Shown here piece by piece: positions 8,986-10,906 of a stretch of DNA of 64,000 nucleotides; positions within the stretch are counted from its first letter, which is position 1, and the number at the start of each line of letters is the position of its first letter. The notes below the pieces were generated by a model, which saw nothing but the letters and a program-made list of their open reading frames with translations, was not told the DNA's origin and made no database searches. The stretch is taken from NCBI RefSeq assembly GCF_013122565.1, contig NZ_CP053258.1; one strand, given 5' to 3'. This DNA is from Escherichia coli. Its GTDB lineage: Bacteria; Pseudomonadota; Gammaproteobacteria; Enterobacterales; Enterobacteriaceae. A program made the position numbers and the translations under genes.

Positions 8986-9090
8986 ACTCCTGAGCAGGTG
9001 GCACTACGCCGCTTTCACAGGAGTTCTGAATGCTGGTGCTTTCTGTATGGCATAACCATGCCTCTAACGGTTAAGTGCTTGCAGCACATG
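8986..9090. repeat. About 105-bp direct repeat, copy A (overlaps 3' end of antitoxin gene)
   Basis: aactcctgagcag..gccgctttcacaggagttctgaatgctggtgctttctgtatggc.. recurs at 10802-10906 with roughly 85 percent identity by eye. Confidence 0.8.
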
Positions 9091-9354
9091 TTGCGGATCA
9101 TTGGCAATCGCTCGCAGCAAAGCCTTTGCAGGCCCGGTCGGTGAACGTCGCCCCTGCTCCCAGTTACGCAACGTGTCTACACTTACAGAAATAAGATCGG
9201 CAAATTTAGATTGTGACAACCCTGAAGCGCGGCGTATTTCTTTGATTTTCATAGCATCAACTTCAAAAGTCCGCGAAGGCTGTCGCGTTCCTTCAATAAT
9301 TTCATTCATCTGGGCCATGCTGTGAGTCAACCGCTCAAAAAGTGCCTTATCCAT
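9064..9354 (-). CDS. HTH (XRE-family) antitoxin, HigA-like
   Basis: 96 aa; helix-turn-helix segment IRRASGLSQSKFADLISVSVDTLRNWEQG; start abuts the stop of the upstream toxin ORF. Confidence 0.7.
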   Translation of the reverse strand: MDKALFERLTHSMAQMNEIIEGTRQPSRTFEVDAMKIKEIRRASGLSQSKFADLISVSVDTLRNWEQGRRSPTGPAKALLRAIANDPQHVLQALNR

Positions 9355-9666
9355 TTACCACCTCGTATTTAACAACCGGAGCATTGCTTTTTCCTGGGGA
9401 GACAGATCATCTTTAATACCCTTACGATAAATAAGCAGTAATCTGATCTCATAATGTTTAACCTGATGAAAGTAAATAACCCTGACACCAGCACGTTTCC
9501 CCTTTCCTCCTGACACCCATCGAATCTTTCTTAACCCACCAGTTTCAGGTATTACCTCACCATAGTCAGGATTCAAGGCCAGGAAAAACTGAAAACGACT
9601 GAATTCATCGTCGGTCAGCAGTTTTTGAACATCTTCAGTAAAAATTTCCGTTTCGATGAAGAGCAT
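9355..9666 (-). CDS. RelE/HigB-superfamily (Gp49-like) toxin
   Basis: 103-aa basic protein placed upstream of an XRE antitoxin (toxin-first hig-type layout); conserved-looking GVRVIYF...LLLIYRKG core. Confidence 0.65.
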   Translation of the reverse strand: MLFIETEIFTEDVQKLLTDDEFSRFQFFLALNPDYGEVIPETGGLRKIRWVSGGKGKRAGVRVIYFHQVKHYEIRLLLIYRKGIKDDLSPQEKAMLRLLNTRW

Positions 9667-9787
9667 AATTATACGCCATTGGCTTAGAGTAACAATCCTT
9701 TTTGTACGTCATTGACGTACCCTTGAAACCACTAGCTTACTGATAGTGCTCCAGCAAAACCACGTCTCTGCCGGGTTTGTCTTTACA

Positions 9788-9807
9788 TTTGCGAGGCGCT
9801 TTCCAGA
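9788..9807 (-). promoter_or_regulatory. Conserved upstream motif tttgcgaggcgctttccaga, copy 3 (upstream of toxin-antitoxin operon)
   Basis: One-mismatch copy of the yiiE/yiiF upstream 19-mer, about 120 bp upstream of the toxin start. Confidence 0.5.
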
Positions 9808-9819
9808 TTTTTCACGCCC

Positions 9820-10803
9820 GTGAATTTCCCGGTATCCATCCAGCAAAAACGGGTGTATAAAACTGTACATTCATACAGCAAAATGAGTTCTACTATGGCA
9901 CTGGAAAAAGGAATTGCAGAGTTAGTCGAAGAGTTTATCGCTGCGGGTCGCCCCTCATCGCGTCAACAAAGTATTGCGCAGCGCAGGGAGGGCTATATCG
10001 CCAGCGCTGTCCTTGCGGGTGAGACAGAAACGCGGGTAGATATTCAGACTATCGAACTTGAAGGGATGACCTTACGAATAGTGTCGCCGCTTAATGCCCC
10101 GACATTACTCCCGACGATAATTTATTACTACGGTGGCTGTTTTGTTAGCGGCGGGTTCGCAACTCACGACAACCAGCTGCGCCAGTTAGCCTATTACGGG
10201 CAATGTCGTGTTATTGCCGTCCAGTATCGGCTGGCACCGGAACATACTTTCCCCGCCGCCCATGATGATGCGCAACGAGGTGCAGAATTAGTCTGGCAAC
10301 ACGCCGAACGACTCGGCGTTGATAAACAACGGATAACTCTTGCCGGTGACAGTGCGGGCGGACATCTGGCGCTGGTAACTGCTTTGCGATTAAAGCGTGC
10401 TGGCGAGTGGCAACCGGCACAACTCATCTTAATTTATCCTATGCTTGATGCGACTGCGCATTTCGAAAGCTACATACGCAATGGTCACGATTACATCATC
10501 ACACGCGACACTTTACTGAGCGGCTTTGAGATGTATCTGCCAGGCATTGAACGCAGGCATCCTGAAGCCAGCCCTCTTTGGCGCGATGATTTCAATGGCT
10601 TGCCACCTGTACATATCATTACCGCTGAATACGACCCACTTTGCGATGAAGGTGAAGCGTTGTATCACCGCATGACAGGGCAAGGAGTGCAATGCACCTG
10701 CCAACGCTACCTTGGCGTTATCCACGGATTTTTTCAGTTAGGTGGTATCAGTGAGGCTGCGCGATCGGCGCTGCGGGATGTGGCCTGGAGAGCGGGAAGG
10801 TAA
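9820..10803 (+). CDS. Alpha/beta-hydrolase esterase/lipase (Aes / hormone-sensitive-lipase family)
   Basis: Oxyanion-hole-like YGGCFVSGG, nucleophile elbow GDSAGG, C-terminal IHGF; true start may be an internal Met (about 9883). Confidence 0.7.
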   Translation: MNFPVSIQQKRVYKTVHSYSKMSSTMALEKGIAELVEEFIAAGRPSSRQQSIAQRREGYIASAVLAGETETRVDIQTIELEGMTLRIVSPLNAPTLLPTIIYYYGGCFVSGGFATHDNQLRQLAYYGQCRVIAVQYRLAPEHTFPAAHDDAQRGAELVWQHAERLGVDKQRITLAGDSAGGHLALVTALRLKRAGEWQPAQLILIYPMLDATAHFESYIRNGHDYIITRDTLLSGFEMYLPGIERRHPEASPLWRDDFNGLPPVHIITAEYDPLCDEGEALYHRMTGQGVQCTCQRYLGVIHGFFQLGGISEAARSALRDVAWRAGR

Positions 10804-10906
10804 CTCCTGAGCAGCGGCCACTATGCCGCTTTCACAGGAGTTCTGAATGCTGGTGCTTTCTGTATGGCTTCGCCATGCCCCTCGCGGCTAAGTACCTGCA
10901 CACATC
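10802..10906. repeat. About 105-bp direct repeat, copy B (immediately 3' of esterase stop)
   Basis: Homologous to 8986-9090; the two copies bracket the toxin-antitoxin-esterase segment. Confidence 0.8.

Follow-up and report, generated by a model that had tools for sequence, protein, structure and literature searches.

Direct repeats around a toxin-antitoxin-esterase unit at the fdhE-fabY locus of Escherichia coli, probably a relic of two merged alternative cassettes

The imperfect direct repeats of about 100 bp that flank a toxin-antitoxin-esterase unit at the fdhE-fabY locus of E. coli can probably be traced to the joining of two alternative alleles of this locus into one composite allele. 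The repeated sequence is the 3' tail of the antitoxin gene nadS together with its downstream flank, copy B being a relic of it, and no dedicated machinery would have been needed. The structure is an ordinary scar of a mosaic locus and does not call for a new mechanism.

Repeat copies and gene content of the unit

The window, i.e., the whole stretch of 64 kb analyzed here, covers the fdhE-fabY locus, on which a literature search found nothing. A repeat search aligned the two copies with 87% identity over 99 nt (8985-9083 versus 10802-10900, spacing 1817 bp), and BLAST lengthened the pair to the limits given in Table 1. The 44-nt core that is identical in both copies has only these two matches in the window at up to three mismatches, with none expected (100 shuffles). 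The similarity is, therefore, above chance, and the positions proposed in the initial annotation hold to within one base. Its placement of the copies was also confirmed by the ORF coordinates, as the final 26 nt of nadS lie within copy A and copy B starts within the esterase stop codon TAA (10801-10803), and the segment of about 1.8 kb between them carries the toxin, antitoxin, and esterase genes as described.

Divergence between the copies is distributed unevenly, the right 38 nt being only 74% identical and much more diverged than the left 67 nt. Copy B still encodes nadS-like terminal codons (QVLSRE versus QALNR and stop). Adjacent to it, the nadS similarity of the right flank (10906-10950) is not significant on its own; for the 35 nt that separate copy B from the CAGAATTC junction, 189 of 2000 shuffles reach the score. 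The reservation that the repeats might be parts of a duplicated gene, made when they were first noticed, applies in part: the repeat consists of the nadS tail plus downstream flank, and copy B is its relic.

Table 1. Features of the repeat-bracketed segment and its surroundings (window positions).
Feature	Position	Strand	Remarks
Spacer between yiiE and copy A	8470-8984		Common to all repeat-bearing alleles
Repeat copy A	8985-9089		About 80 bp 3' of nadS plus the last 8 nadS codons and stop (9064-9089)
44-nt core, copy A	9008-9051		Identical to 10825-10868
nadS, HigA-like HTH antitoxin, 96 aa	9064-9354	-	NF041265 match; annotation in other records
higB/RelE-like toxin, 103 aa	9355-9666	-	Same operon as nadS, upstream of nadS
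Esterase, HSL/LipP1-like alpha/beta-hydrolase	9895-10803	+	HSL-family match
AACTCC microhomology, join of esterase end and copy B	10802-10807	+	6 nt, present in both parental sequences
Repeat copy B	10802-10905		Relic, nadS tail plus downstream sequence; begins within esterase stop codon
44-nt core, copy B	10825-10868		Identical to 9008-9051
Probable decayed nadS 3' remnant	10906-10948	-	Ends at GAATTCTG (10941-10948), a junction also found in the divergent L030 allele
617-aa ORF, candidate SopB/IpgD-like CX5R phosphatase	10972-12825	-	Alternative cassette of the locus; copy B on its 3' side

NadS matched NF041265 with 60.7 bits and thus passed the curated-family threshold for type II HigB/HigA-like antitoxins (cut-off 60). 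The assignment of the 103-aa toxin to RelE/HigB has weak support from matches to Pfam RelE (E = 0.0077) and to phrog_5869 (function unknown, E = 6e-27), with no match in NCBIfam or PADLOC; other records label it "toxin HigB-2" or "RelE/ParE family toxin", which are annotations and not tests. The mechanical ORF of the esterase begins at 9820; we chose 9895, the start of the 909-nt CDS annotated in related records. Neighbors of the unit are CopG/RHH proteins and the 617-aa ORF, which, judging from its predicted fold and motif, looks like a SopB/IpgD-type phosphatase. The label "transposase" that some records give to this ORF is supported by none of Pfam, NCBIfam, PHROG, PADLOC, or PDB. Small ORFs within the repeat (M(V/A)(M/K)PYRKHQHSELL and stop on the minus strand, open frames on the plus strand) show no evidence of coding, because NadS variants that are longer and extend into the repeat result from frameshifts. 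A scan of positions 6000-14000 against Rfam returned only REP-like partial matches at 7654-7736.

Age of the unit and its alleles in E. coli

Salmonella and Citrobacter carry fdhE, nadS-higB, the esterase gene, and, beyond it, fabY in this order and at the same place, without the repeat, while Enterobacter has the toxin-antitoxin pair between fdhE and fabY with neither esterase nor repeat. Nucleotide identity of these outgroups to window positions 9076-10788 is about 70%, and nadS lies 44-55 bp from fdhE. Gene order and sequence together indicate that the nadS-higB-esterase unit occupied the fdhE-fabY interval ancestrally and is its oldest resident, not an insertion. Downstream of the esterase, E. 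coli strains with copy A only carry the palindrome GTTTTCAGATTGAAAAC, which also follows the Salmonella esterase. Since this palindrome is absent from the window, copy B together with the 617-aa segment represents the derived insertion.

We classed 5426 complete E. coli genomes by junction type, and four allele states account for 99% of them. Copy A alone is the most frequent (2309 genomes), followed by a larger, K-12-type deletion (1996), a single copy without the unit (733), and the two-copy form of the window (329). The unit has been lost in about half of the E. coli genomes. The single-copy variants that the initial annotation had suggested searching for do exist as an exact empty site, exemplified by O157:H7 (L002), where the alignments of window positions 7400-9089 and 10802-13400 share a single 103-nt copy. 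The 617-aa haplotypes of two-copy and single-copy alleles are near-identical (98.4-99.5%).

All 329 two-copy genomes share an identical junction between esterase and copy B. It lies at AACTCC, which occurs both in the native sequence downstream of the esterase, as found in strains with copy A only (TAACTCCGGACCAGGGCC), and at the left end of the repeat (AAACTCCTGAGCAGG). A second informative junction comes from the divergent allele of L030 and L031, whose fabY is 92% identical: there, the 617-aa homologue is followed by 70 nt of nadS tail at the same CAGAATTC junction (a score reached by none of 2000 shuffles), and the repeat core ATACAGAAAGC..TTCAGAACTC is likewise found after the 617-aa homologue. 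The lineage of L030 has the junction of 617-aa gene and nadS tail and no toxin-antitoxin-esterase unit.

The copies also bear traces of exchange. Copy B of LHM10-1 holds a patch of copy A (GGCATAACC), and the single copies are chimeric, with left parts matching differing copy-A variants: that of L027 resembles the EC01 variant and continues into a copy-B right part, whereas that of O157 resembles L022. In certain copy-A variants, L022 among them, the match to copy B extends over about 67 nt. The copies are in direct orientation, and their identical core of 44 nt exceeds the established minimal processing segment of RecA recombination in E. coli, about 25-30 bp. Both the conversion patch and the chimeric single copies indicate that ordinary homologous recombination moves sequence between the copies. 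As read from the sequences, the chimeras are explained just as well by one strain's allele replacing that of another, through a crossover within the flank common to both, as by deletion within one chromosome, the route that we infer. The earlier idea that the repeats could be substrates for excision is, accordingly, plausible as regards loss of the unit, given that the exact single-copy empty site exists.

Origin of the two-copy allele

The fdhE-fabY locus is very variable, and E. coli strains carry alternative versions of it. On the explanation that we consider probable, one version would have kept the ancestral nadS-higB-esterase cassette, with copy A before it; in another, the 617-aa gene would have displaced this cassette, of which the end of nadS and the flank beyond it alone remained as the present copy B. 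The window would then be a composite allele holding both cassettes, in which illegitimate recombination at AACTCC attached the 617-aa segment and the relic directly to the esterase stop, replacing the native palindrome between esterase and fabY. The other crossover was presumably homologous and located in fabY, which amounts to a mechanism with homology on one side. As a result of this joining, the 1.8-kb unit came to lie between direct repeats of about 100 bp, on which nothing dedicated acts. General homologous recombination can copy sequence from one repeat into the other or remove the unit; deletion would yield the single-copy allele of many strains. We tentatively attribute the divergence at the right end of the repeat to the age of the alleles together with homogenization of the shared flank.

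A different order of events, i.e., tandem duplication followed by replacement within the second unit, would lead to the same structure as seen today, and our preference for the composite order is a matter of inference. The segment from repeat through nadS and higB to the esterase would have been doubled by an unequal illegitimate crossover at AACTCC, the 617-aa gene would then have taken the place of most of the second unit, with copy B as the remnant, and the single copies would be later deletions between the copies. The AACTCC junction fits this order, the nadS-like terminal codons of copy B agree with it, and the single-copy alleles are exactly the deletion product it predicts. However, given the junction in L030, the two-copy allele would have to predate the split of that lineage and to have persisted in spite of being prone to recombination. 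Moreover, none of the 5426 genomes has two toxin-antitoxin-esterase units or more than two repeat copies, so that the tandem multiples envisaged in the initial annotation were not seen. We therefore regard duplication as the first step as rather unlikely, though it is the strongest of the competing explanations.

Two readings ascribe a role to the structure of the repeat itself, and both appear improbable. In the first, the repeat would have been kept twice as a functional RNA, either a 3'UTR or terminator module or a structured plus-strand RNA antisense to the 3' end of nadS. The plus strand indeed folds into two hairpin domains (z of -3.2 and -2.4, the minus strand giving -0.9 and -2.0), 97.7% of cells remain paired on the plus-strand structure, and variable stem positions change from GC to GU or from UA to UG and vice versa, which would be mismatches on the minus strand; in copy A, a minus-strand hairpin followed by UUUUGCUAU is a possible nadS terminator. 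However, covariation is not beyond that of shuffles (375 of 500 reach the observed score, with one pair two-sided among 15 close sequences), no Rfam family was found at the repeat at E<=1, and a simple terminator scan left it unflagged. Variation between strains is about equal to that of the adjoining intergenic DNA, most of the repeat is missing in L030, other genera do not have it 3' of nadS, and copy B has no U tail.

In the second, to which we assign a similarly low probability, the first hairpin (AACTCCTG...CAGGAGTT) would be a structure-directed breakpoint hotspot that shuffles cassettes, or else the two-hairpin plus-strand RNA would be a cis-antisense regulator of nadS. Two independent junctions, the left one between esterase and copy B (AACTCC^TG) and the right one at the L030 breakpoint (CAG^GAGTT), mirror each other, to within about 1 nt, in the two arms of this hairpin, and processing of a hairpin or cruciform may therefore seed illegitimate recombination.

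That the repeats are attL/attR-type sites, and the unit a small integrative element moved by a site-specific recombinase, is very unlikely. Direct repeats with an identical 44-nt core and an exact single-copy empty site in 733 genomes would suit such an element, but there is no recombinase in or adjoining the unit, whose genes encode NadS, the RelE/HigB-like toxin, and the esterase, and other genera carry the unit here as the ancestral state, without repeats. The similarity, furthermore, extends over about 100 nt, decays gradually, and includes nadS codons, instead of forming a sharp core between unrelated arms, and neither true plasmids nor phages nor other loci were found to carry the unit. 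Matches labeled "plasmid" turned out to be chromosome fragments, those in a phage collection were only Salmonella chromosomal or transduced fragments, and inspection by eye gave only partial, non-conserved resemblances to dif/Xer-like or integron attC-like motifs, which were rejected. Of the two origins offered in the initial annotation, the scar of a duplication thus stands in the sense of a duplication-type event, while site-specific recombination does not, the unit being ancestral and devoid of a recombinase.

Membership in a dispersed repeat family (REP/BIME, ERIC, MITE), or origin as the target duplication of a transposon, suggested by the short, intergenic sequence with an inverted repeat inside, is refuted at the search sensitivity used: genomes have at most two copies, all at fdhE-fabY, a 28-nt core pattern had a single match among 100,044 species representatives, to a contaminant contig (445 bp, 0.76x coverage) in a Micromonospora assembly, all 17 contigs of a metagenome scan are the E. 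coli locus, and target-site duplications of transposons are short and exact (2-14 bp), so that an imperfect repeat of about 100 bp, with no terminal inverted repeats and no transposase, is far too long.

Comparison with known systems

The composite allele is most readily compared with low-copy direct repeats that arise by illegitimate or homology-facilitated illegitimate recombination and then serve as substrates for RecA-dependent deletion and conversion. It shares with them direct repeats of about 100 bp, the 44-nt core, the 6-nt microhomology, and, in the population, a single-copy recombinant allele and a conversion patch. Unlike in that system, the repeats do not look like a fresh duplication in place but like the border common to two old alternative alleles, and the copies have diverged unevenly (core 0%, right 38 nt 26%), presumably because these alleles were brought into one chromosome. 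To the attL/attR sites of integrase islands, the likeness is confined to direct repeats around a cassette and an exact one-copy empty site in other strains, whereas the present locus lacks an integrase, its cassette is ancestral and its repeat homology gene-derived and graded, and the repeat occurs at no other site. Chromosomal type II HigB/HigA (NadS) modules that stabilize adjacent DNA resemble the unit in having a higB-like toxin gene upstream of an HTH antitoxin gene and in being conserved with a neighboring gene across genera. By contrast, the unit described here has been lost from about half of E. coli genomes; by analogy with those modules, it may be stabilized against deletion between the repeats.

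The fdhE-fabY locus thus provides a population-scale example of alternative cassettes at one chromosomal hot spot being merged, in which merging leaves the tail of a gene behind as a direct repeat and then permits a unit linked to a toxin-antitoxin pair to be lost. The locus also warns that a repeat-bracketed cassette need not be a mobile element, since the bracketed unit here is the oldest resident of its locus.

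Structure and distribution of the repeat pair

The window region corresponds to the E. coli fdoI-fdhE ... fabY(yiiD)-dtd locus. The initial annotation had described imperfect direct repeats of about 105 bp around a toxin-antitoxin (TA)-esterase unit, and pairwise alignment bore this out: a repeat search of the window returned a direct repeat of 99 nt at 8985-9083 and 10802-10900, with 87% identity and a spacing of 1817 bp, which BLAST stretches to the limits given in the table. The identical 44-nt core has only two matches within the window at up to three mismatches, with 0 expected by chance. 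The placement of copy A over the 3' end of the antitoxin ORF and of copy B at the esterase stop was likewise correct. P0172 and P0174, rare forms of NadS with lengths of 111 and 115 aa, are frameshift products running into the repeat, and one of them ends ...MVMPYRKHQHSELL, the small minus-strand ORF within the repeat.

Features of the repeat locus and its allele states (window coordinates unless stated)
Feature	Position	Strand	Remarks
Copy A	8985-9089		overlaps final 26 nt of antitoxin ORF
Copy B	10802-10905		starts inside esterase stop codon TAA (10801-10803)
Identical core	9008-9051 = 10825-10868		44 nt
nadS antitoxin	9064-9354	minus	NF041265 match, 60.7 bits (cut-off 60)
RelE/HigB-like toxin			103 aa; weak support: Pfam RelE E=0.0077, phrog_5869; HigB-2 or RelE/ParE in other records
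HSL-type esterase			transcribed divergently from TA genes
617-aa ORF	10972-12825	minus	intact here, two pieces in O157:H7
Mirror breakpoints	L030 2781-2810; window 10802-10807 / 9021-9028		two independent breakpoints
Allele: copy A only			...spacer-A-nadS-higB-esterase-palindrome-fabY; 2309 genomes
Allele: two-copy, window type			copy B right after esterase stop, then 617-aa ORF; 329 genomes
Allele: single-copy			spacer-repeat-617-aa ORF, without TA-esterase; 733 genomes
Allele: K-12 type	8858-12721 deleted		N-terminal stub of 617-aa ORF left; 1996 genomes

With sensitive BLAST, copy A was found in 3369 of 5426 complete E. coli genomes, one or two per genome and always at this locus, and none of the 5426 carried more than two repeat copies. 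All 17 contigs matched in a metagenome scan represent the same E. coli locus, the sole match to a 28-nt core pattern among 100,044 species, each represented by one genome, was a 445-bp low-coverage contaminant contig, and Rfam gave no match to the repeat at E<=1. The repeat is local and not a dispersed element. The TA-esterase unit is absent from true plasmids and phages, its PLSDB and phage matches being chromosomal fragments. The PLSDB records NZ_CP051374.1, CP022659.1, NZ_CP077309.1, NZ_OL790696.1 and others, which match the unit and carry fdoGHI-fdhE...fabY-dtd, are evidently chromosome fragments or whole chromosomes misfiled as plasmids.

Allele states of the fdhE-fabY interval

Pairwise mapping and junction-specific queries over the 5426 genomes revealed four allele states, which together account for 5367 of them. 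The empty site that the initial annotation suggested looking for exists: O157:H7 (locus L002) has an exact one, with a single 103-nt copy (L002 3085-3187) that aligns with both window 7400-9089 and 10802-13400, and the same single-copy junction defines the third state. K-12-type genomes have one 3.9-kb deletion that takes both repeat copies, the TA-esterase unit between them and most of the 617-aa ORF; its junction (near position 2939 of the K-12 locus L004) shows 1 nt of microhomology, and the remaining stub of 117 nt carries a pseudogene annotation. The interval from fdhE to fabY is, over its whole length, a hot spot for cassettes.

Further variants were seen. In strain ECNB21-M121 (L008 4059-4130), an IS5-like ISKpn26 lies inside the repeat directly after ATGCTAG, the CTAG being present only in a G-to-A core variant, and much of the 617-aa ORF is missing to its right. 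Four loci with the B2-type spacer (L005, L006, L033 and L034) carry about 400 extra bp 55 nt left of copy A (window ~8925-8930), with two small arginine-rich ORFs of 92 and 70 aa that gave no family match, and in p11A the two CopG genes are also separated by a DUF6708 gene.

The upstream regions of these CopG/RHH genes, yiiF and yiiE, form a 100-nt direct repeat (8061-8160 and 8500-8599, 72% identity), and the two genes therefore have the appearance of paralogous modules in tandem, each with a putative promoter region of its own. An 18-nt motif, TGGAAA(A/G)CGCCTCGCAAA, occurs on the minus strand at 8117-8134, 8556-8573 and 9788-9805, at distances of 70-115 nt from yiiF, yiiE and higB on their upstream side (three occurrences versus 0.06 expected by chance) and also upstream of Enterobacter higB (L012 4704-4721); its spacing GG-N10-GC is that of sigma-54 -24/-12 promoters, and no literature on it was found. 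Just 3' of fdhE, 7654-7736 gave partial sub-threshold Rfam matches to naRNA4 (a REP-like hairpin) and ES036.

Ancestral occupant and origin of copy B

In Salmonella (L010, L011) the order is fdhE|nadS-higB|esterase|higBA2|fabY, as it is in Citrobacter (L036, L037) and an enterobacterial contig (L035), and Enterobacter (L012) shows fdhE|nadS-higB|fabY without the esterase. These loci share about 70% nucleotide identity with window 9076-10788; in all of them the end of nadS is 44-55 bp away from fdhE, with a simple hairpin in between and no repeat, and NadS orthologues with 82-88% amino-acid identity occur across Enterobacteriaceae. Since the unit occupies the same position in other genera without the repeat, it did not insert between repeats and is the ancestral occupant of the fdhE-fabY locus. 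In Escherichia, fdhE and nadS became separated by the CopG-like genes yiiF/yiiE, a spacer and the repeat sequence. On the right side, TAACTCCGGACCAGGGCCCAGAAAAGGTTTTCAGATTGAAAACCTTTTCAG separates the esterase and fabY stop codons in copy-A-only strains. The palindrome GTTTTCAG(A/G)TTGAAAAC of these strains is found 3' of the Salmonella esterase too and not in the window. The copy-A-only state is therefore ancestral on this side, and 10806-13200, which holds copy B and the 617-aa ORF with its upstream region, took the palindrome's place in the two-copy allele.

The last eight nadS codons (HVLQALNR*) make up the repeat's rightmost 26 nt, and the same register in copy B reads QVLSRE. The 617-aa ORF has few relatives, with one homologue of 73% amino-acid identity in a divergent allele (L030/L031) whose fabY and fdhE are about 92% identical to the window and which occurs in none of the 5426 E. 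coli genomes. After the stop of this homologue, L030 shows the same CAGAATTC junction as E. coli (window 10941-10948, plus strand), then a highly significant 70-nt nadS tail (..PAKALLRAIVNDLKNMLR*; 0 of 2000 shuffles) and the repeat core ATACAGAAAGCGTCAGCGTTCAGAACTC. The E. coli counterpart (10906-10940, 35 nt) is colinear with the nadS tail with two deletions and not significant alone (189 of 2000 shuffles). In the simplest reading, the 617-aa segment would once have pushed out higB, the esterase and the 5' portion of nadS, and the nadS tail and downstream flank that remained would be the relic seen as copy B.

The esterase|copy-B join lies within AACTCC (10802-10807), a hexamer found both in the sequence natively downstream of the esterase (GGTAACTCCGGACCAGG) and where the repeat starts on the left (CAAAACTCCTGAGCAGG); 12 of the first 14 positions match. 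We infer that the two-copy allele was made by homology-facilitated illegitimate recombination, a known process: a 617-type and a TA-esterase allele would have been joined illegitimately at this microhomology, and a second crossover would have fallen on the fabY side that they share. A tandem duplication at AACTCC with later replacement of the second unit would fit the junction equally well, but this order needs a very old two-copy allele that stayed stable. The two known breakpoints in the repeat, AACTCC^TG where the esterase meets copy B and CAG^GAGTT in L030, occupy mirror positions in the first hairpin's two arms, which, with two events only, may be coincidence or hairpin-stimulated illegitimate recombination.

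Exchange, folding and mobility

Among 15 distinct copies, fixed A/B differences are confined to the repeat's right third. A copy-A patch, GGCATAACC, flanked by copy-B-specific sites in copy B of LHM10-1 indicates gene conversion. The single copies are chimeras with right parts all of copy-B type and left parts that differ, being of EC01-type copy A (ATGCTAGTG) in L027 and of L022-type copy A in O157, L025 and L026. Within the 617-aa segment, a single haplotype clade (98.4-99.5% identity) includes both two-copy (L016, L033, L034) and single-copy (L027, L032) loci, and both spacer types are seen with two-copy alleles. Repeated exchange through the repeat is evident from these data, which fit deletion within the chromosome and allele replacement between strains with a shared-flank crossover equally well. 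The identical stretch of 44 nt, which reaches 67 nt with certain variants of copy A, is longer than the known minimum that RecA needs to recombine DNA in E. coli.

A dedicated RNA function of the repeat is unlikely: its plus strand folds better than the minus strand, with two hairpin domains (z-scores -3.2 and -2.4 versus -0.9 and -2.0), and stem substitutions are mainly GC<->GU, tolerated on the plus strand only, but covariation is no stronger than in shuffles (375 of 500 score at least as high, and one pair only changes on both sides among 15 copies), conservation is no greater than in the adjacent spacer, and the repeat is mostly lost in L030 and missing 3' of nadS in other genera. The minus-strand hairpin of copy A, followed by UUUUGCUAU, may serve as a higB-nadS terminator; a simple terminator scan did not flag it.

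A mobile element was rejected, as neither recombinase nor transposase was found in or beside the TA-esterase unit and the 617-aa ORF is phosphatase-like. This gene, present in about 1050-1060 of the 5426 genomes, had no sequence match in Pfam, NCBIfam, PHROG, PADLOC or PDB. Its product carries GCKSAKDRT (CX5R signature) at residues 511-519, invariant across remote homologues, and its AlphaFold model (pLDDT 83) retrieved SopB/IpgD-type inositol phosphatases in Foldseek (E 1e-8 to 1e-6, TM 0.35-0.44); motif and predicted fold point to a phosphatase-like protein and not a mobility enzyme. Certain records name it "transposase" or "IS600 ORF2", for which no profile match was found; this name is set aside given the motif and fold. 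Of the proposed origins by duplication or site-specific recombination, the scar stands and site-specific recombination does not, and the repeats are potential deletion substrates with real empty sites, around a unit that is not mobile. The repeats and their unit are well documented, but as an outcome of mosaic evolution at a hypervariable locus they are ordinary.
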